Counted from the first letter of the stretch, positions 3,450-43,047 are shown. The stretch: DNA of 64,000 nucleotides from an uncultured Alphaproteobacteria bacterium (GCA_902592345.1 CACJEE010000001.1:46038-110037); one strand, 5' to 3'. Notes: generated by a model from the letters alone, not told the origin. Numbers and translations: made by a program.

Positions 3450-4634
3450 ATGAAAAAAGAAAAAAATCCTTTTGGTGAATTAAATCTATTTAGAAATGAT
3501 CAACTAAATAAAAAAAAACTTAAAATAGGTTTTATTGGTGGTGGCCCTAATTCATTTATTGGATATGCTCATAGATTGGCGGCTAGGTTTGATAATAGAT
3601 ATCAAATTATGGCAGGCGTTTTCTCAAAAGATAAAAAAAAATCTGTAGAATTCGGCAAGTCTTTAGGTTTAGAAAAGCAAAGATGTTACAATGATTATAA
3701 AGAAATGGCTGCAAAAGAATCATCTAGAACTGATGGAGTTGAAGTGGTTGGTATAATGACTCCATCAGGAGATCACTATAAAATTGCAAAAGAATTCGCA
3801 AAGCATAAGATAAGCATTATTTGTGATAAACCTCTAACAGCTAGTTTAAATGAAGCAGATGCACTAAAGAAAATAGTAAAAAAAAATAAAATATTTTTTG
3901 CTATTACTCATAATTACTCAGCTTATCCCATGTTACGTGAAGCAAAAGATTTAGTTGATAATAATAAAATTGGAAAAATAAAATTAATAAATGTTGAATA
4001 TCCTCAAGGATATACAGTGGCCGTAAAGAAAAAAGATCAAAAAAATATTCTTAAATGGAGATTAGATAAAAATATGTGCGGACCCTCAATGATTTTAGCT
4101 GAAATTGGCACACATGCATATCATTTATTAAGATATGTTACTGGTTTAGAAGTAAAGGAAATTTCAGCTGAAGTAAGCTCTCTTTCAGATGAAATATCTG
4201 TTGATGATAATGCTTTTATGACACTGAGAATGAATAACAAAGCAAGAGGCTCAATCTGGGTTTCATCTGCAGCAACAGGTGGAGAAAATGGTTTAAAAAT
4301 TAGAGTTTATGGAACTAAAGGAGCTGTAGAGTGGTTTCAAGATGATCCAAATATTTTAAAGTTTACTGAACTCAATAATCCAACCAGAATAATTACTAGA
4401 GCCAGCAATTCTGTATCAAGTCTCTCTATGCAATCGTCTAGAGTAGCAGCTGGACATCCCGAAGGTTTTTTTGAAGCTTTTGCTAATATCTATACAGAAT
4501 TTGCAGACTTAATTACATCTTCAAAGAAAAATTTATCTTCAATTCCAAGTATTGAAGATGGTGTTAAAGGTGTAAAATTTATGTTTGCTGCAAAAGAGTC
4601 TTCAGACAAAAACTCAAAATGGATTAAATTGTAG
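3450..4634 (+). CDS. Gfo/Idh/MocA family oxidoreductase
   Basis: The ORF opens at TTG 3444, but ATG 3450 (MKKEKNPF...) lies just after the upstream TGA. N-terminal Rossmann segment KIGFIGGG and a CDKP motif typical of the family. Confidence 0.75.
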   Translation: MKKEKNPFGELNLFRNDQLNKKKLKIGFIGGGPNSFIGYAHRLAARFDNRYQIMAGVFSKDKKKSVEFGKSLGLEKQRCYNDYKEMAAKESSRTDGVEVVGIMTPSGDHYKIAKEFAKHKISIICDKPLTASLNEADALKKIVKKNKIFFAITHNYSAYPMLREAKDLVDNNKIGKIKLINVEYPQGYTVAVKKKDQKNILKWRLDKNMCGPSMILAEIGTHAYHLLRYVTGLEVKEISAEVSSLSDEISVDDNAFMTLRMNNKARGSIWVSSAATGGENGLKIRVYGTKGAVEWFQDDPNILKFTELNNPTRIITRASNSVSSLSMQSSRVAAGHPEGFFEAFANIYTEFADLITSSKKNLSSIPSIEDGVKGVKFMFAAKESSDKNSKWIKL

Positions 4635-4641
4635 AGATCAA

Positions 4642-5643
4642 ATGAGAATTAATTTTGGTATTTTAGGTGCAGGTCGTATTTCAAAAATACATTGTCATAA
4701 TATTTACAATAATCCAAAATCAAAAATTTTAAAAATTTACGATATAAATAATAAATTATCTGAAAGTTTAGCAAAAAAATATAAAACTTATGCCTGTAAG
4801 GAAGATCTTGAAATATTTAAAGATCCAAAAATTGATGCAATCGTTATTGGGAGTAGCACTCCAACTCATATTAAATATCTAGATTTAGCTAATAAATATA
4901 ATAAAGATGTTTATTGTGAAAAGCCTATTCATTTAAATTTGAAAACTGTTGATGCTTGTCTTAATAGACTATCAAATCATAAAAATAAAATTCAAATTGG
5001 TTTTCATAGACGTTTTGATCTTAGTCATATTGAATTAAAAAAAAGATTAACATCAAAAAAATATGAAGATATTGAGCAGATAAATATTTCTAGCAGAGAT
5101 TCAGGCCTACCTCCAATTTCTTATTTAAAAGTTTCTGGTGGAATTTTTAAAGATATGACAATTCATGATTTAGATATTTTACGATGGCTTCTTAATGATG
5201 AGATTGATGAAGTTTATGCTCAAGGAGCTGTCATGATTGACAGAAAAGTGAAAAAAGTCCCTGATTATGATACTGCCTCAATGATTTTAAAAAGTAAAAA
5301 AGGAATTTTATGTCAATTAAGTAATTCTAGAAGACAAACTGGAGGATTTGATCAAAGAATTGAGATTTATTGTAAAAAGGGTAATTTAAATTTAACCAAT
5401 ATTAAAAAAACAAGTGTTCAGGAAATTAATTCAAAAAGTGAGGTTTTTGATAACTATCCTCTTTCTTTTATTGAGAGATATAAGGAATCATATGTAAGAG
5501 CTATAGATTATTTTATAAATTGTATTATTAAAAATATAAAACCATATCCTGGATTATTAGATGGTAGGAATTCTCTAGCAATTGCTCAAGCTTTAACTGA
5601 GTCTGCAAAAAAATCAAAGCCCATAAAAGTAAATTTTATATGA
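4642..5643 (+). CDS. Gfo/Idh/MocA oxidoreductase, inositol 2-dehydrogenase (IolG/IdhA)-like
   Basis: The ORF track starts at 4585 and overlaps the upstream gene. The internal ATG 4642 gives MRINFGILGAGRISK, a canonical Rossmann start. CEKP and IQIGFHRRFD motifs are shared with the paralog at 15996. Confidence 0.75.
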   Translation: MRINFGILGAGRISKIHCHNIYNNPKSKILKIYDINNKLSESLAKKYKTYACKEDLEIFKDPKIDAIVIGSSTPTHIKYLDLANKYNKDVYCEKPIHLNLKTVDACLNRLSNHKNKIQIGFHRRFDLSHIELKKRLTSKKYEDIEQINISSRDSGLPPISYLKVSGGIFKDMTIHDLDILRWLLNDEIDEVYAQGAVMIDRKVKKVPDYDTASMILKSKKGILCQLSNSRRQTGGFDQRIEIYCKKGNLNLTNIKKTSVQEINSKSEVFDNYPLSFIERYKESYVRAIDYFINCIIKNIKPYPGLLDGRNSLAIAQALTESAKKSKPIKVNFI

Positions 5644-6527
5644 AAATTAATATTGCAAATGCTCCTTGTTCTTGGGGTGTGGATTATGCTGATGATATTA
5701 ATAATCCTGATTGGAAAAATGTTTTTAAGCAAATTGCTGAAGCTGGCTATAGTTATTGTGAAATAGGGCCATATGGTTTTTTACCAAAAGACTTTCAAGA
5801 AACTCAAAATTTCTTAAATGATTTTGATTTAAATGTAGTAGGTGGTTTTATTTTTGATTATTTGCATCAATCTAATAAACATTCAATAATTAAATCAAAA
5901 ATAATTTCTACATGCTCATTTCTAAAAAAACTAAATGCGAAAGTGTTTGTAATAATAGATCATATTTCTAAAGAAAGAATGAAAACATCAGGCAAAAGAG
6001 AAATATCAGCAGATCTTCCTAATGACGAATATAAAGCATTAGTAAGTTTTTTAAATGAAATTTGTAGAATTGTAAAAAAAGAATACAATTTAATTCCAGT
6101 GCTTCATCCTCATGCAGGTACTTATATTGAGTATGAAGATGAAATTGACAGATTGCTTAATGATATAAATAGTGATTCTTTGAGCTTGTGTTTAGATACT
6201 GCTCATTTAACATATAGTGGTATCGATCCGTATCGAGCTATCTTAAAATATAATTCACTTGTAAAACATATGCATTTTAAAGATATTAATTTAGATATTC
6301 TAAATAATGTTCATGATAAAAATATTGATTTTGATACTGCGGTATCAAATGGAGTTTTTTCTCCTTTAGGTAGTGGCATGATAGATTTTAAAAAAATATA
6401 CAAAAACTTGTATGAAATTAATTATGATGGATTTGCAACAATTGAGCAAGACATTGATCCAACACTTGGGCTTAGCGCAATTGAGTACGCAAAAAGAAGT
6501 TTAGAACATTTGAATCAGTTTCAATAA
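5640..6527 (+). CDS. xylose-isomerase-like TIM-barrel protein (sugar phosphate isomerase/epimerase; IolE/IolI-like)
   Basis: 295 aa. ATGA start/stop overlap with the upstream gene. Pattern of conserved His/Asp/Glu (VLHPHAGT, LDTAHL, TIEQD) typical of the AP-endonuclease-2/xylose isomerase-like fold. Confidence 0.7.
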   Translation: MKINIANAPCSWGVDYADDINNPDWKNVFKQIAEAGYSYCEIGPYGFLPKDFQETQNFLNDFDLNVVGGFIFDYLHQSNKHSIIKSKIISTCSFLKKLNAKVFVIIDHISKERMKTSGKREISADLPNDEYKALVSFLNEICRIVKKEYNLIPVLHPHAGTYIEYEDEIDRLLNDINSDSLSLCLDTAHLTYSGIDPYRAILKYNSLVKHMHFKDINLDILNNVHDKNIDFDTAVSNGVFSPLGSGMIDFKKIYKNLYEINYDGFATIEQDIDPTLGLSAIEYAKRSLEHLNQFQ

Positions 6528-7908: not shown

Positions 7909-8898
7909 TTATAATTTTAGAGCAGGGTCGGTTAGTTCTATATCGTCCTCTAAACTTCTATCAGCAATTATGTTAATTTTAGATAAACTATCATGATAAT
8001 ATTTTACTGCTTCATCAGATTTTAAATCTCCATTAACAACTTTTTTCATTGTTTTGACCATTATATTTTGATCTTCACTTAAATTGATTTTTCTTCCAAA
8101 CAAAGCTACCCTAGCTCCATATTTATGCGCTTGAAAAATTAATTCAAAACAATCCCGACTTGTTCCTTGACTTCCACCTAGTATACCAACAATTAATCCT
8201 TGAGGATCATATGATGATAATTCCTCCATTGCCTTTGGCCCATTATATTGAATTTTTAAAAAAAGAGGTCTTTCACTGCTAAGCTGACCACTTAAAGTTT
8301 TTAATATACAATCATTAACATATTCACCCATTTCCTTAATAGATAATTTTATTACAGAAGAATTAAACACTTCTAAAAAATGTCTCATTTTAATTTCTTC
8401 AGCTTGAATTCTGAAATCTCTATACAGATTTAACATATTAACATCTCTATCTACATTTTTATTAAAAGTTATTGAGTATAATCCAAGGTCAACAAAATTG
8501 ATCGCATGTTTTAATTGTGCAGTTGCAAATGGTCGTGATTCTTCCTTATTGTATTCACCATTTCTTATCATGCCCCAAGTACATGTAGTATCATTTAATC
8601 TTACAGCAGGTGTAACTGAATTATTTTCAAATATTTTATTGGTTATTAATCTTTCAGCACTTGTCATTGACATAAGCATTATGTCGACTTCTTCAGATTT
8701 GGTCATGGACTCGATTTTATTTAAATAATTTTGATAACTAGCTGGATTTTCAGTTAAAGAGCCATCATTTTTTCTAATGTAACCTGGAGCTCTTATACCA
8801 GCTGCCATATCTGCATCTTTAGCATCAGCAATTATGAAATCAGTTGATTTATAATTTGAAGTATTAATATTTTTTAGCTTATTGTCTAATGATTTCAC
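7909..8898 (-). CDS. conserved hypothetical protein, possibly a class-I-aldolase-like TIM barrel
   Basis: 329-aa ORF. Weak resemblance to LacD/FbaB-type aldolases (FLKIQYNGP with a candidate Schiff-base Lys; GARVALFGRKI near the C-terminus). The family call is tentative. Confidence 0.35.
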   Translation of the reverse strand: MKSLDNKLKNINTSNYKSTDFIIADAKDADMAAGIRAPGYIRKNDGSLTENPASYQNYLNKIESMTKSEEVDIMLMSMTSAERLITNKIFENNSVTPAVRLNDTTCTWGMIRNGEYNKEESRPFATAQLKHAINFVDLGLYSITFNKNVDRDVNMLNLYRDFRIQAEEIKMRHFLEVFNSSVIKLSIKEMGEYVNDCILKTLSGQLSSERPLFLKIQYNGPKAMEELSSYDPQGLIVGILGGSQGTSRDCFELIFQAHKYGARVALFGRKINLSEDQNIMVKTMKKVVNGDLKSDEAVKYYHDSLSKINIIADRSLEDDIELTDPALKL

Positions 8899-8998: not shown

Positions 8999-9958
8999 AT
9001 GAAAATTAAATATTTATTAGTAGCTATAGCATTTGTGTTTGGATCTTTTTCTGCAAATGCTGTAAAAATACCTGTAATTGTTAAAGATAGTACTTCTCCA
9101 TTTTGGCAAATAGTTCTTGATGGCGGATGTACTGCAGGCGCAGAATTAGGTATTGAAGTTCCATTATTAGGACCAACTTCAGAAGCAGATATTGCTGGTC
9201 AAATAAACGTACTAGAGGATGCTGTTGCAGGAGGAGCTGATGCTATTGTTATAGCTGCAACTTCTTTTGAAGGTCTAGGTGCACCAATTGATGAAGCAGC
9301 TAAATCAGTGCCTGTAGTTGTTATCGACTCTATTGCAGATTCAAAAAATCACGCATCTTTCATGACTACAAATAATGTAGAAGGTGGAAGAATGGGTTGT
9401 CAACATATGGTTGATTTAATTGCTGAGAAACATGGCGCACCAGAAGGTGAAGTTGCCATCGTTAATTATGGAGCTGGACCAAGTTCACTTCGTGATAGAA
9501 TTCAAGGTTGTAATGAAGTTTTAGACAGTTATCCTGGCATTGAACTTGTTGCTACAAAAGTTGGTGATTTTACAACAACTAGACAGTTAAATGATTCACT
9601 TGACTTAATTACTACTTTCCCAAATCTTAGAGGTATCTTTGATGATGCATTATTTGGAGGTTTAGGAACAGGTCAAGCGCTTAAAGAAACTGGCAAAGCT
9701 GACGATATTATTGCTGTTACATTTGATAGTAGTGATGAATTAATCAACTACATCAATGATGGTACTTTAAAGGGTTTAATTATTCAAGATCCTTGGGGTA
9801 TGGGTAATATGGGCGTAAAAGCTGCATTTGATGCATCTCAAAATGGAAAAGTATTAGCACCTTTCGTTGATACGGGAGCTACTTTAGTTACAAAAGCTAA
9901 TATTAATGATGCTGCAATTGATGCTAAGTTAAATCCAAGTTTGGATTGTAAGCCGTAA
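8999..9958 (+). CDS. periplasmic monosaccharide-binding protein (RbsB/FrcB-like, CUT2 ABC system)
   Basis: 319 aa with a signal peptide (…GSFSANA|V) and a strong AGGGAGG SD. Type-I periplasmic-binding-fold pattern. Followed by permease and ATPase genes. Confidence 0.8.
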   Translation: MKIKYLLVAIAFVFGSFSANAVKIPVIVKDSTSPFWQIVLDGGCTAGAELGIEVPLLGPTSEADIAGQINVLEDAVAGGADAIVIAATSFEGLGAPIDEAAKSVPVVVIDSIADSKNHASFMTTNNVEGGRMGCQHMVDLIAEKHGAPEGEVAIVNYGAGPSSLRDRIQGCNEVLDSYPGIELVATKVGDFTTTRQLNDSLDLITTFPNLRGIFDDALFGGLGTGQALKETGKADDIIAVTFDSSDELINYINDGTLKGLIIQDPWGMGNMGVKAAFDASQNGKVLAPFVDTGATLVTKANINDAAIDAKLNPSLDCKP

Positions 9959-9971
9959 GTAATAATTATTT

Positions 9972-10003
9972 AAAACCCCCTTGAATTTTAGGGGGTTTTT
10001 TTT
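9972..10003 (+). terminator. rho-independent terminator/attenuator between the SBP and permease genes
   Basis: AAAACCCCC-ttgaatttta-GGGGGTTTT hairpin followed by a T-run, beginning 14 nt after the SBP stop codon. The TTG-initiated ORF start at 9981 runs through it. Confidence 0.7.
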
Positions 10004-10022
10004 ATTAAGAAAAGATAAAATT

Positions 10023-11015
10023 ATGGATTTAATGGAATTATTTACAGGCCCAAGAAAAGGGGCAGTTGCCGACCCTCGTGTTGCAAGATTAAGAATGTAT
10101 TTAAATAATCTTGCTGTTTTTTTTCTAGTTTGTGCAATGTGGATTACTTTATCTTTGGTAACATCTACTTTTGCTACAACAGGTAATATTACAAACGTGC
10201 TTAGACAATCTTCATTATGGTCAATAATAGCAATTGGACAAACAGTTGTCTTGATTACCGCTGGTATAGATTTATCAATTGGATCTGTTGTTGGACTATC
10301 AAGTTGTATAGTAGCTCTTATGTTAAATAAAGGTTATCCAATATCTGTATCTTGTGTATTCACCTGTTTATGTGGTTTAGGTGTAGGGGCCGTTCATGCA
10401 TTTGGAATAACTAAAGGAAAACTTCCTCCTTTTATTATGACACTCGCAGGTTTAACGACTTGGTTTGGAGTTGGTTTATTGATTACTGGAGCAATGCCAA
10501 TTGGCAATTTACCTGCTGATTTCAAAAATTTTTCCAGAGGAGATGTTCTAGGCATTCCAAATCTATTTTTATGTGTAATAGGAGTTATGATTCCAACTTA
10601 TATTATTTTAAATCACACACGTTTGGGTAATCATTTGTACTCAATAGGAAGTAATCGTCCTGGAGCAGAGTTAAATGCTGTGCCTGTTACAAGAACTATA
10701 TTTTTTGCCTACATGTATTCTTCTTTACTTGCATCAATTGTAGGCATTCTAGTTGCAGCAAGGCTTAGTTTAGGTATAGCATCCAATGGGTTTACATGGG
10801 AACTTCAAGCTGTTGCATCTTCAGTTATAGGTGGTACTAGCCTTTTTGGAGCTGTCGGAGGAGTCTTTGGTCCAGTACTTGGTGCAACCGTTCTTTCAAC
10901 AATTAATAATGGTGCTAACCTCTTAAATGTTCAACCTTATTGGCAAAGAATTTTAACAGGTGTAATTATCGTTACAGTTGTATTCTTTGATCAGTTGAAA
11001 AAAAGAGGTAAATAG
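10023..11015 (+). CDS. sugar ABC transporter permease (RbsC/FrcC-like)
   Basis: I moved the start to ATG 10023 (MDLMELFTG...), downstream of the terminator hairpin. Multi-span hydrophobic protein of the ribose/fructose permease type. Confidence 0.85.
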   Translation: MDLMELFTGPRKGAVADPRVARLRMYLNNLAVFFLVCAMWITLSLVTSTFATTGNITNVLRQSSLWSIIAIGQTVVLITAGIDLSIGSVVGLSSCIVALMLNKGYPISVSCVFTCLCGLGVGAVHAFGITKGKLPPFIMTLAGLTTWFGVGLLITGAMPIGNLPADFKNFSRGDVLGIPNLFLCVIGVMIPTYIILNHTRLGNHLYSIGSNRPGAELNAVPVTRTIFFAYMYSSLLASIVGILVAARLSLGIASNGFTWELQAVASSVIGGTSLFGAVGGVFGPVLGATVLSTINNGANLLNVQPYWQRILTGVIIVTVVFFDQLKKRGK

Positions 11016-11018
11016 TAA

Positions 11019-11753
11019 ATGACAGAAATTGTCAATTTATCAAATATTTATAAAAGTTTTGGAGCTGTTCAGGCTCTTATAGATTTTAATTTATCTATAA
11101 ATGAAGGTGAAATAGTTGGTTTGATGGGTGACAATGGAGCTGGAAAATCTACTCTTTTAAAAATATTGGCTGGAAATTTTTTACCAACATCAGGTAATAT
11201 AAATTTTAATGGAGAAGATGTTGTTTTTAATAATCCAAAAGATGCAAGAAAAGCAGGGGTGGAAGTTGTTTATCAGGATCTAGCCTTATGTGATCATTTA
11301 ACTGCTGCTAAAAATATTTATTTGAGTAGAGAGGCAAAAAGATTTGGTTTTTTATTAGATCATAAAAAAATGAATGAGACTTCTCAAAAACTTTTAGATG
11401 AATTAAATTCAAGTGCAAGACCTGGAGATGTCGTTACAGGAATGTCTGGAGGGCAAAGACAGGCAATAGCAATTGCTCGAACAAGATTATCTGAGCCTAA
11501 AATAGTTTTAATGGATGAGCCTACTGCGGCAGTAAGTGTAGCACAAGTTCCTGTAATATTAGATTACATTAGGAGTCTTAAAAAGCAAAATCATTCAGTT
11601 CTTCTAATAAGTCATAGATTACCTGATATTATGGAAGTTTGTGATAGGATTGCAGTTATGCGTCTTGGAGAGAAAGTTTGTGATAAAAATAAATCAGATT
11701 GTAATCCTGAGGAAATAACAGGGTTAATTACTGGTGCAATTAAAAGTGCCTAA
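11019..11753 (+). CDS. sugar ABC transporter ATP-binding protein (single NBD, FrcA-like)
   Basis: Walker A GDNGAGKST, signature MSGGQRQ, Walker B VLMDEPTAA. At 244 aa it has one NBD rather than the duplicated RbsA type. Confidence 0.85.
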   Translation: MTEIVNLSNIYKSFGAVQALIDFNLSINEGEIVGLMGDNGAGKSTLLKILAGNFLPTSGNINFNGEDVVFNNPKDARKAGVEVVYQDLALCDHLTAAKNIYLSREAKRFGFLLDHKKMNETSQKLLDELNSSARPGDVVTGMSGGQRQAIAIARTRLSEPKIVLMDEPTAAVSVAQVPVILDYIRSLKKQNHSVLLISHRLPDIMEVCDRIAVMRLGEKVCDKNKSDCNPEEITGLITGAIKSA

Positions 11754-11786: not shown

Positions 11787-12026
11787 ATGGAAAAAAAAAT
11801 AATCTTACCTAGACTTGGAGAAACAATGGAAATAGGCACTATCTCTAAATGGTTAATAGAAGAAGGTGATGAATTTAAAAGAGGTCAAATTATAGCTGAA
11901 GTAGATAGTGATAAAACTACAGTTGAGTTACCTGCTTTAGAAGATGGAAAACTCACTAAAATACTTTCCAAAGAAGGTGAGGAAATAGAAGTGGGCAGTG
12001 ATATTGCTATTTTTGAGTCAGTCTAG
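11787..12026 (+). CDS. free-standing lipoyl-attachment domain protein
   Basis: 79 aa matching an E2 lipoyl domain end to end (LPRLGETMEIGTISKWL...EVDSDKTTVELPA with the lipoyl-Lys DK motif). There is no linker, E1/E3-binding domain or catalytic domain. The 3' end overlaps the convergent kinase gene by 20 nt. Confidence 0.75.
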   Translation: MEKKIILPRLGETMEIGTISKWLIEEGDEFKRGQIIAEVDSDKTTVELPALEDGKLTKILSKEGEEIEVGSDIAIFESV

Positions 12027-12948
12027 ATTTATTCATTTCTATTTCAGTAGGCGGGTAGCAACCCTCTTTTGTACAACAAATTGCAGCAGCTTTACTGGCA
12101 AATTTTAAACACTCTTCCCACTCATATTTTGTAAGGTTTAATAATTTATTTTTATTTAAATTTTTACTTTTATATAAATAGTTAATTACTGCAGCTTGAT
12201 AAATATCACCAGCACCAACTGTATCTTTTATTTTTACTTTGTATGACTTAATATAAATTCTAAAATTTTGAGTGTATAAGATTGATCCATTTTCTCCCAT
12301 TGTAAATATTATAAAAAGTATATTATTTTTTTTTATCCAGCTTGGAATTATTTTATCTGGATTTTTATTACTATTTATATAATTAAAATCTTCATCGCTT
12401 AATTTTATAATATCTGCTAATTTCAGGAACTCATTAAATCTTTTTAAGAACTTTTGTTTATTTTCTATCAATGATCCGCGAACATTAGGATCAATTGAAA
12501 TTAAAGAATTATTTTTTAAACTTTTAATCATTTTAAAATAAGTTTCAGACCCTGGTTTTAATACAAGAGAAATTGATGAAAAATGTGCAAGCATTATTTT
12601 TTTTAATACAGTACTTTTAAAAGAATAGTTTGTTAAATTTCTATCTGCAGTCTGGTTTGCATAAAAAGCAAATTCAGGTTTTTTTTTATTACTTATAAAA
12701 CCAAGAGTTGTTTTGTCTGAAGTTTTTTGAATTAAATTAGTTTTCACATTATGTTTTTTTAAAAAACTAATAATTTTTTTTCCAAAAAAATCATTCGATA
12801 TTCGTGAAAAAAAATATACTGGAGTTTTCATTGCACCAAGACCTATCGCAGTGTTTAAAGGTGACCCACCTACGCAAGCTTTAAATGACTCAGAGTCTTC
12901 TGAGTTAGGAACAAAATCAATTAAATTTTCACCTGAACAAATTATCAT
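12007..12948 (-). CDS. PfkB-family carbohydrate kinase (fructokinase/ketohexokinase-like)
   Basis: 313 aa with N-terminal GENLIDF...GGSPLNTA and the C-terminal DTVGAGDIY PfkB signature. Confidence 0.8.
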   Translation of the reverse strand: MIICSGENLIDFVPNSEDSESFKACVGGSPLNTAIGLGAMKTPVYFFSRISNDFFGKKIISFLKKHNVKTNLIQKTSDKTTLGFISNKKKPEFAFYANQTADRNLTNYSFKSTVLKKIMLAHFSSISLVLKPGSETYFKMIKSLKNNSLISIDPNVRGSLIENKQKFLKRFNEFLKLADIIKLSDEDFNYINSNKNPDKIIPSWIKKNNILFIIFTMGENGSILYTQNFRIYIKSYKVKIKDTVGAGDIYQAAVINYLYKSKNLNKNKLLNLTKYEWEECLKFASKAAAICCTKEGCYPPTEIEMNKSRLTQK

Positions 12949-13007
12949 AATTTTTTTTAAAGATGTTTGTTTTTAACATAATAACATATATAAAATTATA
13001 ACAAATC

Positions 13008-14018
13008 ATGTCTAATACTTTATTGCCTAAATTATACAAAACTATGAAGAGAATAAGAACTTTCGAAGAGAGAGTCTCTGAGTTATTTATCAAAGGTGAA
13101 TCTGCAGGAACTATGCTTCACCTTTCTATTGGTGAAGAGCTTGGGCCAGCATGTGTTGGAACAGCGATGCAAGAAAATGATACATTCACTACACATCATA
13201 GAGGTCATGGAATTTTTGTTGCTAGAGGAGGTGACCCGAATAGGATGCTAGCTGAAATAGCAGGAAAAAAAGATGGTTATTGTAAAGGCAAAGGTGGCTC
13301 AATGCACATTGCCGATATGACACTAGGTCATTTAGGTGCAAATGCAATTGTTGGGGGAGGAATACCTACTGTTGTTGGTGCTGCTATGAGCTACAAATAT
13401 TTAAAACAAGAGCGTGTTTCAGTTGCATTTTTTGGTGATGGCGCGATGCAACAAGGTATTCTTTATGAAAGTATGAATATGGCCTCACTTTGGAAATTAC
13501 CAGTAGTCTTTTGTTGTATTAATAATCAATACGGAATGGGAACTAAAATTGAAAATGCAGTGGGGGTCAAAGATTTTTCTAAAAGAGCTGAGTCATTTGG
13601 ATTAAATACATTACATATAAATGATTTAGATGTTGAAAGCGCATATCATAAATCGAAAGAAATAATAGACTCTGCAAGAAAATTTAAACCTGGTTTTATT
13701 GAAATAGAGTGTTATAGATTTTATGGTCATGCAAGAATGGACAAAAGTCCATACAGGGATGAATCTGAAGAAAGTGAAAAAAGAAAACTTGATCCTATAT
13801 CTTTTGCTAGTAATCAAATGATAAAAAATAATATTTTAGATGAAGCGGATATTAAAAAAATTGATAATGATATTATGATTGAAATGGATAAAGCTATGGA
13901 ATTTGCAATTAATTCACCAATCAATGAGGAAACAGAAATATTTAAAGATGTTTATAGTGAAAATGATCCTTTGCCAGTAAGCTTAGATGAAAAAATTAAT
14001 AAAATTTTAAACAACTAA
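13008..14018 (+). CDS. TPP-dependent 2-oxoacid/acetoin dehydrogenase E1 alpha subunit
   Basis: 336 aa with TPP motif FFGDGAMQQG...CINNQYGM and the YRFYGHARMD phosphorylation-loop-like segment typical of E1 alpha. Confidence 0.85.
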   Translation: MSNTLLPKLYKTMKRIRTFEERVSELFIKGESAGTMLHLSIGEELGPACVGTAMQENDTFTTHHRGHGIFVARGGDPNRMLAEIAGKKDGYCKGKGGSMHIADMTLGHLGANAIVGGGIPTVVGAAMSYKYLKQERVSVAFFGDGAMQQGILYESMNMASLWKLPVVFCCINNQYGMGTKIENAVGVKDFSKRAESFGLNTLHINDLDVESAYHKSKEIIDSARKFKPGFIEIECYRFYGHARMDKSPYRDESEESEKRKLDPISFASNQMIKNNILDEADIKKIDNDIMIEMDKAMEFAINSPINEETEIFKDVYSENDPLPVSLDEKINKILNN

Positions 14019-14022
14019 AATT

Positions 14023-15021
14023 ATGTCAAATCTTAATCAAAATTATTTTGAAAAAATCACCTATAGAGATGCTTTACGTTTAGCAATGCATGATGCAATG
14101 CAAGAAGATAAAAATATTATAATTATGGGCGAGGATGTAGCTAATTACGGTGGTGCATATGGGGCTACAAAAGATTTGTTAAAATTATTTGGAAAAGAAA
14201 GAGTAATTGATACACCTATTTCAGAACCTGCGATAGTGGGTGCAGCTGTGGGTGCAGCAATGTCTGGTCTACGTCCTGTTGCAGAGTTAATGTATGTAGA
14301 TTTTTTTGGGATGTCCATGGATCAAATTGCTAATCAGCTTGCAAAAATACGATATATGTTTGGTGGACAAATTAGTGCACCAATGGTTTTAAGAACACAG
14401 GGTGGTACCGGGAGATCTGGAGGTGCACAACATTCTCAAAGCCTGGAATCATGGATAATGCATACGCCTGGACTTTTTTTAAGTATGCCAGCAAAACCAA
14501 ATGATGCATATCATTTACTAAGACATGCTCTGAAAATTGATAATCCTACAATATTTATAGAGCACAAACTTTTATATAATACTACAGGTACACTAGATAA
14601 AAATGATATTGGTGCACCATTTGGGAAGGCTAATATTTTAAGAAAAGGAAAAGATGTAAGTATAATTTCATACTCACGAATGATAAATTATGCTGAAAAG
14701 GCTGCTGAAATATTAGAAAAAGAAAATATTAGTGCAGAGGTAATTGATTTACGTACTCTTTATCCTTTGGACAGAGAAACAATTATTACTTCTGTTAATA
14801 AAACAAAAAGAGCTCTTGTCTTAAGTGAGAGTTATTACACTTCCAGTGTCCCAAGTGAAATTACATCAATTATTTTTGAAAATTGTTACAAAGTTTTAAA
14901 AAAACCTGTAATTCGCTATACAGCTGAAGATACACCAGTGCCTGTAGCACCTAATTTAGAAAAAAATTATATACCAACAATAGAAAAAATAGTCGAATAT
15001 ACTAAAAAAGTCTGTAATTAA
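14023..15021 (+). CDS. 2-oxoacid/acetoin dehydrogenase E1 beta subunit
   Basis: 332 aa. Transketolase-like pyrimidine-binding pattern (MGEDVANYGGAYGATKDL...DTPISE) and a C-terminal domain. Starts 4 nt after E1 alpha. Confidence 0.85.
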   Translation: MSNLNQNYFEKITYRDALRLAMHDAMQEDKNIIIMGEDVANYGGAYGATKDLLKLFGKERVIDTPISEPAIVGAAVGAAMSGLRPVAELMYVDFFGMSMDQIANQLAKIRYMFGGQISAPMVLRTQGGTGRSGGAQHSQSLESWIMHTPGLFLSMPAKPNDAYHLLRHALKIDNPTIFIEHKLLYNTTGTLDKNDIGAPFGKANILRKGKDVSIISYSRMINYAEKAAEILEKENISAEVIDLRTLYPLDRETIITSVNKTKRALVLSESYYTSSVPSEITSIIFENCYKVLKKPVIRYTAEDTPVPVAPNLEKNYIPTIEKIVEYTKKVCN

Positions 15022-15045: not shown

Positions 15046-15939
15046 ATGAATAAAATATTAAAATTTGATATTTGTGTCTGCGGGTATTCTTTCAAGGATA
15101 CAATTTATGAACTTAATAGTTTCCCAGAAGAAAATTCAAATAAGTCCTATGATGCCGTTGTTTCAAATAAATTTGGTGGTGTATTTAATACATTAAGGGC
15201 TCTTCGTTTTTTAAACAAAAAAATAAAAATTAAAGTGTTAACAATTCTCGGTAAGGACGAAGATGGGAAGCAAGGCTTAAAAGAAATTAAAAAACTTAAT
15301 ATTAATCATAATTCAATAGTTTTTAATAATAGCACAAGTACATCACTTAATATTATAAATAAAAAAAAGAATACAAAAACTTTTATAGTAAGATTTAATT
15401 CAAAAAAAATTCACAATATTAGTAACCTTGAAGATTCTAAATGGGTTCATTTTATGTATTTAGATAATGTTGAGTTTATAAATCAGTTTAAAAAAATTGT
15501 TTTAAATAAAAAAAAAGATCAATTTTTTTCAGCTGATCTCTCTAGAAGAACCATTTCAAAATTAGATTTAAGTAAATATTTAAATAAATTAGATTTTTTA
15601 ATTTGTTCAACAAAAGAATTACCTTCTTTATTTAAATCAAATAGGTGCAATGAATTTAATCAATATTCTATGCAAAAAATTAAAACATTATCAAAAAAAA
15701 TTAAATATATAGTTGTGCATAATAAATTTAAAAGTCTTGGTTTTATTGATGGCACATTAATTGAAGTTAAGAATAATAATCTTGTTAATAATAGAAATAT
15801 AAATATTACAGGGGCTGGAGATACTTTTACCGCAAGTTTAATAAATGACTTTATTACTAATAATATGATTGATAATAAATCAATTTCTGATGCTCATAAA
15901 ATTGCATCTAAATTCTGTATGGGTAAAATCAAAATATAG
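15046..15939 (+). CDS. PfkB-family kinase-like protein (divergent)
   Basis: 297 aa, extremely Asn/Lys/Ile-rich. It retains the GG motif (NKFGGVFNT) and the ITGAGDTFTA signature. Substrate unknown. Confidence 0.6.
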   Translation: MNKILKFDICVCGYSFKDTIYELNSFPEENSNKSYDAVVSNKFGGVFNTLRALRFLNKKIKIKVLTILGKDEDGKQGLKEIKKLNINHNSIVFNNSTSTSLNIINKKKNTKTFIVRFNSKKIHNISNLEDSKWVHFMYLDNVEFINQFKKIVLNKKKDQFFSADLSRRTISKLDLSKYLNKLDFLICSTKELPSLFKSNRCNEFNQYSMQKIKTLSKKIKYIVVHNKFKSLGFIDGTLIEVKNNNLVNNRNINITGAGDTFTASLINDFITNNMIDNKSISDAHKIASKFCMGKIKI

Positions 15940-15995: not shown

Positions 15996-17000
15996 ATGTT
16001 TAACTTTTCTTTAATGGGTGCTGGCAGAATTGGTAAAATGCATGCCAGTATAATAGATGCTCATCCTGATTGTAACTTAAAATATATTTATGATATTAAT
16101 GCTGAATTTGTTAATCAATTAGCAAATAAATATGAAGCTAGTATAGCCTCTTCTCCAGAACAGGCTTTAACAAGTGAAGAAATTGATGCAATTCTAATAG
16201 CCTCAGCAACCCCTACACATACTGAATTTATAACTAAAGGGTCAATGGCAGGAAAAGCAATATTTTGTGAAAAACCAATTGATTTGGATATAAATAAAGT
16301 TGATGAATGTAGAGACGCTATTAAGGGTACAAGTGTTCCTATTCAAATTGGATTTAATCGTCGTTTTGATAGCAGTCATAGTAAACTTCAACAGGCAAAC
16401 ATTAATAATGAAATTGGCAAGCTGGAAATGCTTATTATTACCAGTCGTGATCCAGAACCACCCGGTTTAGATTATTTAAAAGCTGCGGGAGGTTTTTTTA
16501 GAGATACAACTATTCATGATTTTGATTTAGCACGTTTCATATTAGGTGATGACCCAATTATTCAAGTTTCTGCATTTGGCAGTCAATTGATTAGTGAAGA
16601 TGTTAAAAAGGTAAATGATCATGATACTGCTATGTTTATTTTAAAATCTAAAAGTGGGGTTTTAATTCATATAAATAATTCAAGAAGAGCAGTATATGGT
16701 TATGATCAACGTGTAGAAATTTTTGGAAGCAAGGGTATGATGATATCAAATAATCAAACCCCAACCTCTGTTCAAAAATTTTCTGAAAAAAACACAGAGT
16801 CTAAAGATCCAATTCATTACTTCTTTATCGAAAGATATGAGCAAGCCTACAGAGACCAATTTAATGATTTTGTTGAAACTATAAAAAATCATAGTAATCC
16901 AAGTGTCAGTTTTGAAGATGGTCGAAATGCTTTAATTTTAGCTAATGCAGCATACGAGTCATATAATTCTGGAAAAGTAATTGATATTTCATATGACTAA
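15996..17000 (+). CDS. inositol 2-dehydrogenase-like Gfo/Idh/MocA oxidoreductase (IolG/IdhA-like)
   Basis: 334 aa with LMGAGRIGKMH, CEKPID and IQIGFNRRFD motifs. Paralog of the gene at 4642. Confidence 0.75.
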   Translation: MFNFSLMGAGRIGKMHASIIDAHPDCNLKYIYDINAEFVNQLANKYEASIASSPEQALTSEEIDAILIASATPTHTEFITKGSMAGKAIFCEKPIDLDINKVDECRDAIKGTSVPIQIGFNRRFDSSHSKLQQANINNEIGKLEMLIITSRDPEPPGLDYLKAAGGFFRDTTIHDFDLARFILGDDPIIQVSAFGSQLISEDVKKVNDHDTAMFILKSKSGVLIHINNSRRAVYGYDQRVEIFGSKGMMISNNQTPTSVQKFSEKNTESKDPIHYFFIERYEQAYRDQFNDFVETIKNHSNPSVSFEDGRNALILANAAYESYNSGKVIDISYD

Positions 17001-17847
17001 TAAGTATCTTCAAGATTTAAGTACACAATATAAAAATAAAGTTGTTATTGTTACTGGAAGTACTCAAGGAAGTGGTGCTGAAGTTGCAAAATTATTTGCA
17101 CATAGAGGTGCTGAGGCCATAACAATTTGTGGCCGTAATGAACAACAAGGTTTAGAAATAAAATCAGAAATTGAATCTATTGGAAGCAAATGTATTTTTG
17201 TAAAAGCAGATTTAAATGAATCAGAAGAATGTCAAAATATTGTAAAAAAAACAGATAGTGCTTTTGGAAAAATTAATTCTCTAATAAATGTTGCTGGTTT
17301 TACTGAAAGGGGCACTATTTTAAGTACTACACTAGATAACTATAATAGAAATTTTAATATCAATACAAGAGCACCATTTTTATTAATGCAAGATTCAATA
17401 AAAATAATGATAAGAGAAAAAATCCAAGGAACAATTTTGAATGTATTATCTATGGCTATGTATAGTGGAATGCCTTTTTTAACTGCGTACAGTGGATCTA
17501 AAGCAGCTCTTGCAATTATAACTAAAAATGTAGCGAACGGTGTTGCAGGACATAAAATTAGAGTTAATGCATTAAATATAGGCTGGACCGATACACCAGG
17601 GGAAGATACTATTCAGAGAAAATTTCATGAAGGTGGAGATGATTGGCTTAAAAAAGCAGAAGCTAAAGTTCCTTTCAAAAGATTAACAAAACCAATTGAT
17701 GTTGCAAGAGCAGCAGCTTATTTTTGCTCTGAAGAGTCAGGACTTGTTACGGGGAGTGTTATTGATTATGATCAAACTGTTAATGGCTGGCACTCGTATT
17801 CAGCTTATGATACTTCTATTTTGGATGACTCTTTACTTGGAGAATAA
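16993..17847 (+). CDS. short-chain dehydrogenase/reductase (SDR)
   Basis: I take ATG 16993 (MTNKYLQ...), which overlaps the upstream stop by 8 nt. TGSTQGSGA glycine motif and YSGSKAA catalytic motif. Confidence 0.8.
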   Translation: MTNKYLQDLSTQYKNKVVIVTGSTQGSGAEVAKLFAHRGAEAITICGRNEQQGLEIKSEIESIGSKCIFVKADLNESEECQNIVKKTDSAFGKINSLINVAGFTERGTILSTTLDNYNRNFNINTRAPFLLMQDSIKIMIREKIQGTILNVLSMAMYSGMPFLTAYSGSKAALAIITKNVANGVAGHKIRVNALNIGWTDTPGEDTIQRKFHEGGDDWLKKAEAKVPFKRLTKPIDVARAAAYFCSEESGLVTGSVIDYDQTVNGWHSYSAYDTSILDDSLLGE

Positions 17848-41744: not shown

Positions 41745-41800
41745 ATCGTTCATCTCATTAATTGAGTGAGACGGAAGTAGGTGAAATCCGAAGGAACGCA
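41745..41800 (+). promoter_or_regulatory. glutamine riboswitch (glnA RNA motif) in the amt leader
   Basis: AUCGUUCAUCUCAUUAAUUGAGUGAGACGGAAGUAGGUGAAAUCCGAAGGAACGCAG. P1 is CGUUC (41747-41751) paired with GAACG (41794-41798). The conserved ACGGAAGUAGG and CGAAGGAACGC cores are present. Located upstream of an ammonium transporter, a typical context. Confidence 0.8.
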
Positions 41801-41809
41801 GTTCATTCC

Positions 41810-41880: not shown

Positions 41881-43047
41881 ATGACGTTGGAAGAATTAAA
41901 TGTTTTTGTCACCACACAAGCAAACGTGGGCATGGAAGCTTACTATTGGTGGTGTACAGGACTAATGATTATTATTCACGTTGGTTTCTTAATGTATGAA
42001 GTAGGCGCTACAAGAATGCAAAATGCTGTTTCTTCAGGTGTTAAAAATTTATTAGCATTTGCATTTATGATACCAACATTTTGGCTATTTGGATGGTGGA
42101 TCTACTTAGCTTTTCCAGGAGGATTTGTACCTATTGATTTAGAAGGATACGGAGTTCCATGGAATGTTTCAATGGGACCAATGCTAAGTGACCAAGCTAC
42201 CGGTGTATTCTGGGCTGCATTTACTCTATTTGCTTGTACTACTGCTTCAATTTTTTCTGGAGCTGTAATTGAAAGAATTAGAATTAGTGCATTTGTATTT
42301 CTAGCAGTTGTTTTAGGATCTGTTGTTTGGATTTTAGCAGCTTCTTGGGGATGGCATCCAGATGGATGGCTTGTAACTGGATGGGGATTCCATGACGTAG
42401 CGGCTGCAGGGTGTGTTCACACTGTTGCAGGACTATTTGCATTTGGGGTGCTTTTAAACCTTGGACCAAGAGTAGGAAAATATAATGATGATGGCTCTAT
42501 GAATGATCTTGAAGGTCATAGCTTAGTTCTATCTTTTGTTGGCTTATTAACTTTGATTGTAGGTTTCTTTGGATTCCTAGGAGCTTGTTTAATTTGGGCA
42601 GGATCAGATTTTGGAGGTTGGGTAAATATTTATGGTGCACCAGCTACATTATCTTCTTTTGCATTCAATACTTTGATGGGTCTAGCTGGAGGCATGATCG
42701 GTGCTTTCTGGTGGAGTAAAGGAAATCCTTTCTGGATGATGTCAGGTGGACTAGCAGGTATATTCATATGTGCTGGTGGTCTTGATATTTGGTATCCTGG
42801 GTTTGCATTTATTCTTGGAACAGTTGCAGGATGTGTAATTATTCCAGCAAACAATTGGCTTCATAACACTTTTAAAATAGATGACTGTGTAGGAGCAGTA
42901 TCAATTCACGGTGTTTGTGGTATCTTAGGTATGTTGTGTGTAGGACTTTTTGCTTCTGGTTTTCCAGCAGCAGGAGATATTCCAGCTTCAAATCTAACTG
43001 GTCAAATTGTTGGTGCTATTGTATGTTTTATATGCAAGTTTAGCTGA
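41881..43047 (+). CDS. amt: ammonium transporter (Amt family), apparently truncated at the 3' end
   Basis: 388 aa with conserved DVAAAGCVHTVAG and SIHGVCGILG (twin-His) motifs and a strong AAGGAGG SD. The ORF ends (…GQIVGAIVCFICKFS*) only part-way into the expected 11th TM helix. Confidence 0.8.
   Translation: MTLEELNVFVTTQANVGMEAYYWWCTGLMIIIHVGFLMYEVGATRMQNAVSSGVKNLLAFAFMIPTFWLFGWWIYLAFPGGFVPIDLEGYGVPWNVSMGPMLSDQATGVFWAAFTLFACTTASIFSGAVIERIRISAFVFLAVVLGSVVWILAASWGWHPDGWLVTGWGFHDVAAAGCVHTVAGLFAFGVLLNLGPRVGKYNDDGSMNDLEGHSLVLSFVGLLTLIVGFFGFLGACLIWAGSDFGGWVNIYGAPATLSSFAFNTLMGLAGGMIGAFWWSKGNPFWMMSGGLAGIFICAGGLDIWYPGFAFILGTVAGCVIIPANNWLHNTFKIDDCVGAVSIHGVCGILGMLCVGLFASGFPAAGDIPASNLTGQIVGAIVCFICKFS

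Follow-up and report, generated by a model that had tools for sequence, protein, structure and literature searches.

In the acetoin dehydrogenase system (AcoABC[L]), a heterodimeric, thiamine pyrophosphate (TPP)-dependent E1 (AcoA/AcoB) cleaves an alpha-hydroxyketone and reductively acylates lipoamide, which is carried by the E2 component AcoC, a protein combining a lipoyl domain, an E3/E1-binding domain and an acyltransferase domain. The present study concerns a 64,000 nucleotide stretch of DNA from an uncultured Alphaproteobacteria bacterium (GCA_902592345.1, CACJEE010000001.1:46038-110037), here called the window, in which the genes for a heterodimeric TPP E1 of the same E1_dh lineage lie close to a gene encoding a lipoyl domain of 79 amino acids (aa) that stands alone. 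This domain is closest to the N-terminus of AcoC (PRK14875 type) and, by analogy, the same cleavage with reductive acylation of lipoamide would be expected. The window system differs from AcoABC in having no E3-binding domain (PSBD), no acyltransferase or hydrolase, no aco regulator and no E3, in carrying its lipoyl domain on a separate gene, and in a sugar and inositol context, not one of acetoin or butanediol.

Two other kinds of system invite comparison. The H protein of glycine cleavage and free carriers such as LbpA are small lipoyl proteins that diffuse between soluble enzymes without a PSBD scaffold and are re-oxidized by dihydrolipoamide dehydrogenase, and the 79 aa protein may behave likewise; it differs from the H protein in being an E2-type lipoyl domain and in having as its partner a TPP E1, not a pyridoxal phosphate-dependent decarboxylase. 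In alphaproteobacterial pyruvate dehydrogenase (PDH), E1 beta has a fused N-terminal lipoyl domain (NF008854/PRK11892) that is similarly tied to E1 and not to the E2 core, whereas the window lipoyl domain is unfused, its E1 beta has no extension and both E1 subunits fall below the PDH equivalog cutoffs. Judged from sequence, what appears to be new is an AcoABC-derived system cut down to E1 and a free lipoyl domain in a sugar context. Full-text literature searches returned no description of this free-carrier system or of the related rhizobial operon discussed below; the literature found on AcoC and hydrolases, Pelagibacter and acetoin, Sinorhizobium and acetoin dehydrogenase, the structure 4RXT, and free lipoyl carriers does not describe it, and the only 'lipoyl carrier protein' met near an aco paper was the H-protein-like LarG. 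Public databases label the genes in generic or misleading ways ('pyruvate dehydrogenase E2', 'acetoin:DCPIP oxidoreductase'), and automatic calls of 'pyruvate dehydrogenase E2' or 'acetoin dehydrogenase' probably mislead marine metabolic models.

The free-standing lipoyl gene and its E1 partners

The 79 aa open reading frame (ORF; 11787-12026, + strand) is exactly one E2-type lipoyl domain. Its Pfam match to Biotin_lipoyl (E 7.7e-19, 67.7 bits) spans residues 4-75 of 79, and the lipoyl-lysine, K43, lies in a D42-K43 motif. The top NCBIfam match is the AcoC N-terminus (PRK14875, 81 bits against a cutoff of 307), above the 68.8 bits obtained against positions 1-77 of the PRK11892/NF008854 model; with a GCV_H score of 16.7 bits against a cutoff of 22.2, the protein falls outside the H-protein family. 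Solved lipoyl domains of PDH E2 (E2p) align with it end to end, and its DSDK aligns with the ETDK of the E2p domains, which is the lipoyl-lysine motif of human E2p. Domains of the lipoylated subclass are flattened barrels of about 75 residues that carry a conserved DK(A/T) lysine at the hairpin tip, and this alignment would place the protein among them. At its 3′ end the gene overlaps a convergent PfkB kinase gene (12007-12948, − strand) by 20 nt. This arrangement of ORFs, with its single domain and DK motif, had been described in an earlier note made from the sequence alone, and the coordinates proved exact.

The two E1 genes follow on the + strand. E1 alpha (13008-14018), the TPP-binding subunit, is of the acetoin-type clade (E1_dh, E 7e-64), and E1 beta (14023-15021) consists of pyrimidine-binding and C-terminal domains (Transket_pyr, E 8e-42; Transketolase_C, E 7e-36). 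Both are intact, as the earlier note had supposed: the TPP motif GDG...NN (G143-D144-G145...N172-N173) and the YGH active-site histidine of E1 alpha and the PISE glutamate of E1 beta can be read from the sequence and were checked among the invariant alignment columns. E1 alpha scores 314.7 bits against the PdhA equivalog (TIGR03182, PDH_E1_alph_y; cutoff 393.85) and E1 beta 354.6 bits against the PdhB equivalog (NF008854; cutoff 454), and E1 beta passes the generic PDH E1-beta subfamily model (367.5 against 321). An N-terminal lipoyl domain is absent from E1 beta, which matches PRK11892 at positions 139-462 only, the lipoyl part of the model being excluded. Carboxylate-binding residues were considered for discriminating 2-oxoacid from acyloin E1 proteins and were dropped; H128 of the beta subunit contacts both oxo and carboxylate groups.

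No E2 catalytic domain and no E3 are present in the window, as had been claimed. When 15 classical E2 and 8 E3 (dihydrolipoamide dehydrogenase) sequences were compared by tblastn with the six frames of the 64 kb, the sole match was the lipoyl domain itself (11787-12020). Likewise, of a full rhizobial AcoC-like protein residues 1-75 alone matched the window, with no trace of a hydrolase downstream, and Pfam assigned 20 other window ORFs, including all of E2 or E3 size, to unrelated families, none of them E2 or E3. Of the AcoABC[L] components, the window encodes E1 alpha and E1 beta and, for E2, the lipoyl domain only; AcoR, AcoX and AcoL were not found in it. A separate Abhydrolase or CMD gene was not seen within 8-10 kb in any of the low-GC marine variants of the locus described below.

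Searching 5.8 billion proteins with the 79 aa sequence gave 151 relatives. Among the best 120, which were listed, identity ranges from 97% to 66%, 106 are 74-90 aa in length and 70 have a length of exactly 79 aa. All 107 of the 107 aligned homologues (74-90 aa) have D42 and K43, with T13, E15, F30, R32, E38, E47-L48-P49, L51 and I73-A74 among the other invariant positions, and G11, E12, G33 and G54 are retained in 98-99%. Between diverged loci (pairs at 69-87% protein identity), Nei-Gojobori ratios of nonsynonymous to synonymous substitution (dN/dS) are 0.08-0.23 (lipoyl gene), 0.06-0.18 (E1 alpha) and 0.04-0.12 (E1 beta), values that are approximate because dS is about 1-2.5; the loci within each of the sets L001-4, L005-8 and L013-15 are identical in DNA and are therefore uninformative on selection. 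The gene has survived relocation and the divergence of E1 alpha to about 68% identity within the clade. Since K43 is invariant and dN/dS is low, the lipoyl ORF is, as far as sequence can tell, a conserved gene under purifying selection and not debris. A search of a representative protein set was swamped by multi-lipoyl E2 proteins, for which domain scores are summed, and showed one or two stand-alone proteins.

At one of the marine loci, L001, PfkB and E1 alpha are separated by a 49 aa ORF (9304-9453) that shares 63% identity with the N-terminus of a zinc-dependent alcohol dehydrogenase (Zn-ADH) encoded at the corresponding position of another, L013. Unlike the intact lipoyl gene adjoining it, this ORF is a clear gene remnant.

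In every low-GC marine locus with enough flanking sequence, the lipoyl gene is within about 3.3 kb of the E1 genes, and six gene orders were observed. In the window and L100-102, an ABC transporter is followed by the lipoyl gene, PfkB on the opposite strand, E1 alpha and beta, a second PfkB (PfkB2), IolG and a short-chain dehydrogenase/reductase (SDR). The second order (L005-8, L105-6) begins with a 614 aa TPP enzyme, a 2-hydroxyacid dehydrogenase and an SDR, continues with the ABC transporter, lipoyl gene, opposed PfkB, E1 genes and PfkB2, and ends with GFO and IolE-like genes. The third (L097) has the outer flanks of the window and, between them, the lipoyl gene, E1 genes, IolG and SDR, with neither kinase nor transporter. 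In the fourth (L001-4), a ribokinase-like PfkB, a 341 aa protein without assigned function and a different ABC transporter precede the lipoyl gene, opposed PfkB, Zn-ADH remnant and E1 genes; in the fifth (L013-15), XylA, an FGGY kinase, a mutarotase and an ABC transporter precede the lipoyl gene, opposed PfkB, an opposed FA_hydroxylase, Zn-ADH and the E1 genes. In the sixth (L103), a class II ketose-bisphosphate aldolase and a small kinase are followed by E1 alpha, E1 beta and a lipoyl gene of 76 aa. The lipoyl gene, E1 alpha and E1 beta are the universal core of these six orders. The PfkB that opposes the lipoyl gene is beside it in 5 of the 6 orders, the first, second, fourth and fifth among them, and absent from L097, so that of the lipoyl/E1/PfkB arrangement whose co-occurrence elsewhere the earlier note had proposed examining, the lipoyl-E1 linkage recurs and the link to PfkB is not obligatory.

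Across loci, lipoyl and E1 identities drop in parallel (87/83, 69/71, 66/75 and 52/61%), consistent with co-inheritance of the lipoyl gene and E1. Because the detached lipoyl gene is conserved, selected and tightly linked to the E1 genes, a dedicated E2 core is not needed by the system, and in this respect the suspicion that a detached carrier signals a different logic was well founded.

Origin from an AcoC-like E2

Outside the marine clade, the nearest E1 alpha proteins (55-61% identical) are those of Sinorhizobium, Rhizobium, Aestuariivirga, Tabrizicola, Marivita, SAR116, Rhodospirillum, Azospirillum, Acetobacteraceae and Tritonibacter. Most of these relatives have an operon composed of a SorC-type regulator, a CUT2 ABC transporter, E1 alpha, E1 beta, an AcoC-like protein, an AhpD-like CMD protein, an FGGY pentulose-kinase-like protein and two SDRs. 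The full order is seen in Sinorhizobium, Rhizobium, Tabrizicola, Azospirillum and Tritonibacter; the operon is partial in Marivita, SAR116, Aestuariivirga and Acetobacteraceae, with Marivita and SAR116 keeping an E1 alpha, E1 beta, AcoC-like and FGGY core. The AcoC-like E2 of the relatives is 396-530 aa long, comprises lipoyl, PSBD and alpha/beta-hydrolase domains and passes the NCBIfam AcoC equivalog PRK14875 (399 bits, cutoff 307). An E2 of this hydrolase type is present at 10 of the 12 alphaproteobacterial orthologue loci, which are all of those with a readable E2; two Acetobacteraceae loci (L025 and L026) end too soon, and their shortened lipoyl ORFs at contig ends were left out as evidence. 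Where more distant E1 loci (45% identity or less) encode a full-length E2, it is mostly a classical one with a DHRxxDG motif.

The window shares with the rhizobial and roseobacter operon orthologous E1 alpha, E1 beta and lipoyl sequences, 61%, 57.5% and 52% identical to those of S. meliloti, in which E1 alpha is itself paired with an alpha/beta-hydrolase AcoC, and in both cases a CUT2 transporter, a sugar kinase and dehydrogenases adjoin. It differs in that the E2 of the operon is complete (439-530 aa) and is followed by the AhpD-like gene, and in that the kinase of the operon is FGGY rather than PfkB. Because the 79 aa ORF and the lipoyl domain of the AcoC-like E2 share 52% identity (52-56% across these proteins), the ORF is concluded to derive from such an E2. 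In a neighbour-joining tree of E1 alpha, the free-lipoyl marine loci are monophyletic and sister to the hydrolase-AcoC clade; L103 is the first branch, and its lipoyl gene is still in the AcoC position after E1 beta. The simplest history would be a single loss of the PSBD and hydrolase at the base of the marine clade, after which the lipoyl gene moved upstream of E1. Relatives with a full-length E2 directly after E1 beta, which the earlier note had held would mark the ORF as a truncation, do exist in Rhizobiales, Rhodobacterales and SAR116; they do not, however, make it a non-functional one.

Among the 80 genome loci at which a lipoyl ORF was detectable, the majority encode a full E2 (324-578 aa). 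At one locus from a metagenome-assembled genome (MAG) of Acidimicrobiaceae (L074), a 79 aa lipoyl ORF lies divergently upstream of E1 alpha, E1 beta and an SDR, and a Spirochaete MAG (L027, 441-8228) has a cupin-type glucose-6-phosphate isomerase, E1 alpha, E1 beta, a free lipoyl gene of about 85 aa, an ROK kinase, DUF6259 and a split transketolase. The combination of a free lipoyl gene with E1 genes is therefore rare and, from these two cases, has arisen more than once; in the Spirochaete, an independent case, it is again set among genes of sugar-phosphate metabolism.

The AhpD-like CMD protein of the operon (111 aa) is encoded directly after the AcoC-like E2, as at L009 (13316-13651), L107 (12593-12928) and L108 (12539-12877). 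It is so placed in Sinorhizobium, Rhizobium, Tabrizicola, Rhodospirillum, Azospirillum and Tritonibacter, and none of the low-GC marine variants has it. Because the lipoamide of an E2 reduces AhpD in mycobacteria, the CMD protein may be a lipoyl-linked redox partner. The AcoC-like E2 of Rhizobium straminoryzae (L017, 11850-13586), a locus with no CMD match, has two tandem lipoyl domains. Those of Rhizobium sp. CIAT894 (L107, 10991-12583) and Tritonibacter (L108, 10999-12546) are 515-530 aa and, given this length, may also have two. The operon, conserved and unstudied, is in this way exposed in genetically tractable rhizobia and roseobacters, in which its substrate could be revealed.

Proposed function and alternative explanations

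With moderate confidence, it is proposed that the 79 aa protein is a dedicated free lipoyl carrier for the adjacent acetoin-type E1, and that this E1 cleaves a sugar-derived alpha-hydroxyketone, likely a ketose phosphate, the product being off-loaded in trans. From the domain content, origin, conservation and linkage observed above, we infer a reaction type, a substrate class and routes of off-loading and re-oxidation. In a streamlined low-GC marine lineage (SAR11-like), the E2 of the AcoABC-like system of alphaproteobacterial sugar operons would have been reduced to its lipoyl domain, kept as a separate gene. A dehydrogenase (IolG/GFO, SDR or Zn-ADH) and a kinase (PfkB, FGGY, ROK or the small kinase) would make the alpha-hydroxyketone, most likely as a ketose phosphate. 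E1, as an alpha2beta2 TPP enzyme, would attack the carbonyl and cut the adjacent C-C bond in the manner of acetoin dehydrogenase E1 or transketolase, with release of an aldehyde (aldose phosphate), and the TPP-bound enamine would reductively acylate the lipoyl-K43 of the carrier. The acyl group, for example glycolyl, might then leave in trans, by transfer to coenzyme A on a housekeeping E2, by hydrolysis or by lactonization, and the carrier might be re-oxidized by the housekeeping dihydrolipoamide dehydrogenase, like the H protein of glycine cleavage. Deacylation and re-oxidation would have to take place in trans because the PSBD and acyltransferase domains are missing.

Cleavage of a ketose or ketose phosphate is proposed because the E1 is of the lineage that pairs with AcoC-type E2 proteins and because genes of ketose and ketose phosphate metabolism recur beside it. 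Across loci the recurrent neighbours are a fructokinase-like PfkB, XylA with FGGY kinase and mutarotase (L013), the FGGY pentulose-kinase-like gene of the operon, an ROK kinase, an aldolase with a small kinase (L103), glucose-6-phosphate isomerase and transketolase, together with polyol or cyclitol dehydrogenases (IolG/GFO, SDR, Zn-ADH). A chemical precedent is offered by the Streptomyces proteins QncN/QncL/QncM (and SclQ1-4), in which a thiamine diphosphate enzyme and a lipoyl domain convert a ketose phosphate (e.g. xylulose 5-phosphate) to a lipoyl-bound glycolyl unit, as summarized in PMC6335953. The Qnc system differs in that its thiamine diphosphate part is transketolase-like, its lipoyl domain is fused to an acyltransferase, its acceptor is an acyl carrier protein (ACP) and its role is in secondary metabolism, so that the likeness is one of chemistry only; neither an ACP nor an acyltransferase gene was seen near the window E1.

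A number of points weigh against the proposal. QncN is outside the E1_dh family, which limits it as a precedent. The acyl group would have to depart from the carrier without the help of any acyltransferase. L097, with its lipoyl gene, E1 genes, IolG and SDR, has no kinase or transporter, and together with the apparently truncated PfkB of L105 (see below) this means that a phosphorylated substrate is not assured. The neighbours differ by variant (inositol, xylose, ribokinase-like), leaving a common substrate ambiguous. The search for E2 and E3 covered 64 kb of this genome, and partners acting in trans would lie outside that scope. Finally, the host is probably a SAR11-like alphaproteobacterium, an assignment drawn indirectly from GC content (about 31%), gene content (trimethylamine monooxygenase-like, glutamine-synthetase-like and betaine-transporter genes) and matches of window proteins to TARA and other marine metagenome contigs (80-99% protein identity), and no named Pelagibacterales is among the matches listed in the E1 alpha profile genome scan.

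If the carrier works as proposed, the system would be a lipoate-dependent TPP dehydrogenase without an E2 scaffold, a minimal design of which the glycine cleavage system is so far the one familiar example, and would add a new sugar or cyclitol cleavage step in a probable member of SAR11, the most abundant heterotroph of the ocean, in which sugar metabolism is poorly understood. A more specific route is put forward tentatively and is doubtful: as an 'oxidative ketolase', the acetoin-type E1 would act on ketose phosphates or inosose and the free carrier would link it to housekeeping enzymes, giving an aldose phosphate and a C2 acyl unit such as glycolyl, which could pass to glycolate, glyoxylate and glycine. 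SAR11 requires glycine or glycolate. Were this route real, the same oxidative-ketolase chemistry with a complete E2 would explain the rhizobial and roseobacter operon of E1, AcoC-like, AhpD-like and FGGY genes.

Among the alternatives, it is rather unlikely that the E1 pair docks on the E2 core of housekeeping PDH or 2-oxoglutarate dehydrogenase (OGDH), using its lipoyl domains, acyltransferase and E3 and leaving the 79 aa protein dispensable or an accessory adaptor. PDH and OGDH complexes are encoded in SAR11 genomes, the surroundings of the E1 genes contain neither an E2 catalytic domain nor an E3, and the score of E1 beta above the generic PDH E1-beta subfamily cutoff is in keeping with such docking. 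However, the free lipoyl gene is constrained like E1, keeps its lysine invariant and has never parted from the E1 genes despite rearrangement, whereas a dispensable gene is hard to reconcile with gene decay at these loci, as seen in the L001 Zn-ADH remnant; E1 alpha falls under the PdhA equivalog cutoff and the sister clade uses an AcoC-type E2 of its own.

It is unlikely, too, that E1 and carrier open the inositol ring, acting on scyllo-inosose or on the diketone product of IolE, with a uronyl or deoxy-glucaryl thioester that leaves by lactonization or hydrolysis. This would replace IolD, as the earlier note had suggested. Inosose is an alpha-hydroxyketone and fits acetoin-type chemistry, a true IolG follows just after the E1 and kinase genes, the minimal L097 keeps the lipoyl, E1, IolG and SDR genes, and a nearby UxaA/GarD-like dehydratase and the PfkB kinases could process a uronate-type product. 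Of the canonical myo-inositol set (IolG-E-D-B-C-J-A), the window has an IolG that passes its model, an additional IolG-like gene, an IolE-like gene below cutoff and a PfkB below the IolC cutoff, and no IolD; among the window ORFs large enough for IolD (about 600 aa or more), none is of the TPP_enzyme family. The replacement of IolD is nevertheless weakened by the coexistence of a true IolD with the lipoyl and E1 genes and by variants without inositol genes: the 614 aa TPP enzyme is beside them in L005-L008 and L105-L106 and, in L005, is a true IolD equivalog (781 bits, cutoff 715), and no inositol genes are found at L001, L013, L103 or the rhizobial, roseobacter and Spirochaete loci. It may apply to the window and L097, in which IolG is linked and IolD absent.

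That the E1 is a 2-oxoacid dehydrogenase E1, carrying out oxidative decarboxylation of a 2-keto-3-deoxy sugar acid (e.g. 2-keto-3-deoxygluconate or 2-keto-3-deoxy-xylonate) from a neighbouring dehydratase, is quite improbable. A GarD/UxaA-family dehydratase and a D-xylose-1-dehydrogenase-like SDR are upstream in the window and in L097, and most members of E1_dh are 2-oxoacid enzymes, but no dehydratase was found near E1 in L009 (rhizobial), L108 (roseobacter), L001, L013 or L103, where kinases, isomerases and ketose aldolases are the recurring type of neighbour, and the sister clade is paired with the alpha/beta-hydrolase AcoC type, the PRK14875 model being named for the acetoin system. An ordinary AcoAB acting on acetoin, with the SDRs as butanediol dehydrogenases, is very improbable. 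Homologues are publicly named 'acetoin:DCPIP oxidoreductase subunit alpha', the lipoyl domain best matches the AcoC model and SDRs with acetoin-reductase-like scores are nearby; every lineage examined, however, embeds these genes among those for sugar transport, sugar kinases, isomerases and inositol metabolism, acetoin catabolism offers no role for an ATP-dependent sugar kinase, and the aco accessory genes are missing from the window. The weakest alternative, a non-functional leftover of a decayed acoC, was right as to origin, in that relatives have the full-length AcoC-like E2 and the ORF matches its first domain only, but as to decay it is effectively refuted by the conserved length, the invariant D42-K43, dN/dS close to that of E1, retention through relocation and the missing trace of any downstream hydrolase.

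Neighbouring genes

Upstream of the lipoyl gene is a CUT2-type sugar ABC transporter (8999-11753, +), made up of a binding protein (8999-9958; Peripla_BP_4 in Pfam), a permease (9981-11015) and an ATPase (11019-11753), which stops 33 nt short of the lipoyl gene. The same junction is found in L005 and L100; BPD_transp_2 and ABC_tran were recorded for the L005 permease and ATPase, which are 82-80% identical to those of the window, while the binding protein of L001 and L013 is another one, with about 30% identity. That of the window is closely related to PDB 4RXT (254 bits), a structural-genomics entry under the name 'Sugar ABC transporter' with a putative pentose ligand; the ligand would bear directly on the substrate of the cluster.

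The PfkB kinase opposing the lipoyl gene (PfkB, E 9e-41) is fructokinase-like: its best NCBIfam match is fructokinase (137 bits, under cutoff), its score to the IolC model is 111 bits against a cutoff of 300, and its best PDB matches are 4U7X and 4WJM, with fructokinases next. The corresponding gene encodes 257 aa in L105 (10221-10994) and 314 aa in L106 (10221-11165), and in L105 about 370 nt then separate it from E1 alpha; it may be decaying in that strain, in which the lipoyl and E1 genes are intact. PfkB2 (15046-15939, +; PfkB, E 4.6e-15) falls within the kilobase of lowest GC (0.209, against a window mean of about 0.31), in agreement with the earlier remark on its composition. It is 43% identical to its L005 orthologue, compared with 71-74% for E1, and is evolving unusually fast, with the GAGD catalytic motif retained; it is absent from L097, L001 and L013.

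The inositol 2-dehydrogenase IolG (15996-17000, +; TIGR04380, 387 bits, cutoff 355) is a candidate source of an alpha-hydroxyketone. In the kinase-less L097 it is directly after E1 beta and 71% identical. The SDR that follows it (16981-17847, +) is of the PRK06198 subfamily (NF004847, 351 bits, cutoff 240), has 4NIM as best PDB match and is conserved in L097 and L100. Further upstream are the IolG-like dehydrogenase (4585-5643, +; TIGR04380, 335 bits, cutoff 355) and the IolE-like TIM-barrel protein (5640-6527, +; TIGR04379, 176 bits, cutoff 290).

A 329 aa protein without a Pfam family (7909-8898, −), part of the surroundings and not of the core, has a predicted DhnA-type class I aldolase fold. 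Its AlphaFold2 model (mean predicted local distance difference test score, pLDDT, 64) has LsrF, ADH synthase and class I fructose-bisphosphate aldolase as top Foldseek matches, and LacD is also found. There are more than 8000 marine homologues; among the 120 listed, all but one are exactly 329 aa and are at least 70% identical. The predicted model points to a probable class I aldolase of the DhnA type, one that is common in this group and has escaped Pfam. The 341 aa neighbour in L001 was compared with it and is not homologous.

A promoter scan of the AT-rich window was uninformative, with 49 sites against 50 expected. In an Rfam scan of the window no tRNAs were found, and the sole match was a glutamine riboswitch (41745-41802, +; RF01739, 64 bits against a gathering score of 35), which is directly 5′ of an ammonium transporter gene (41881-43047).

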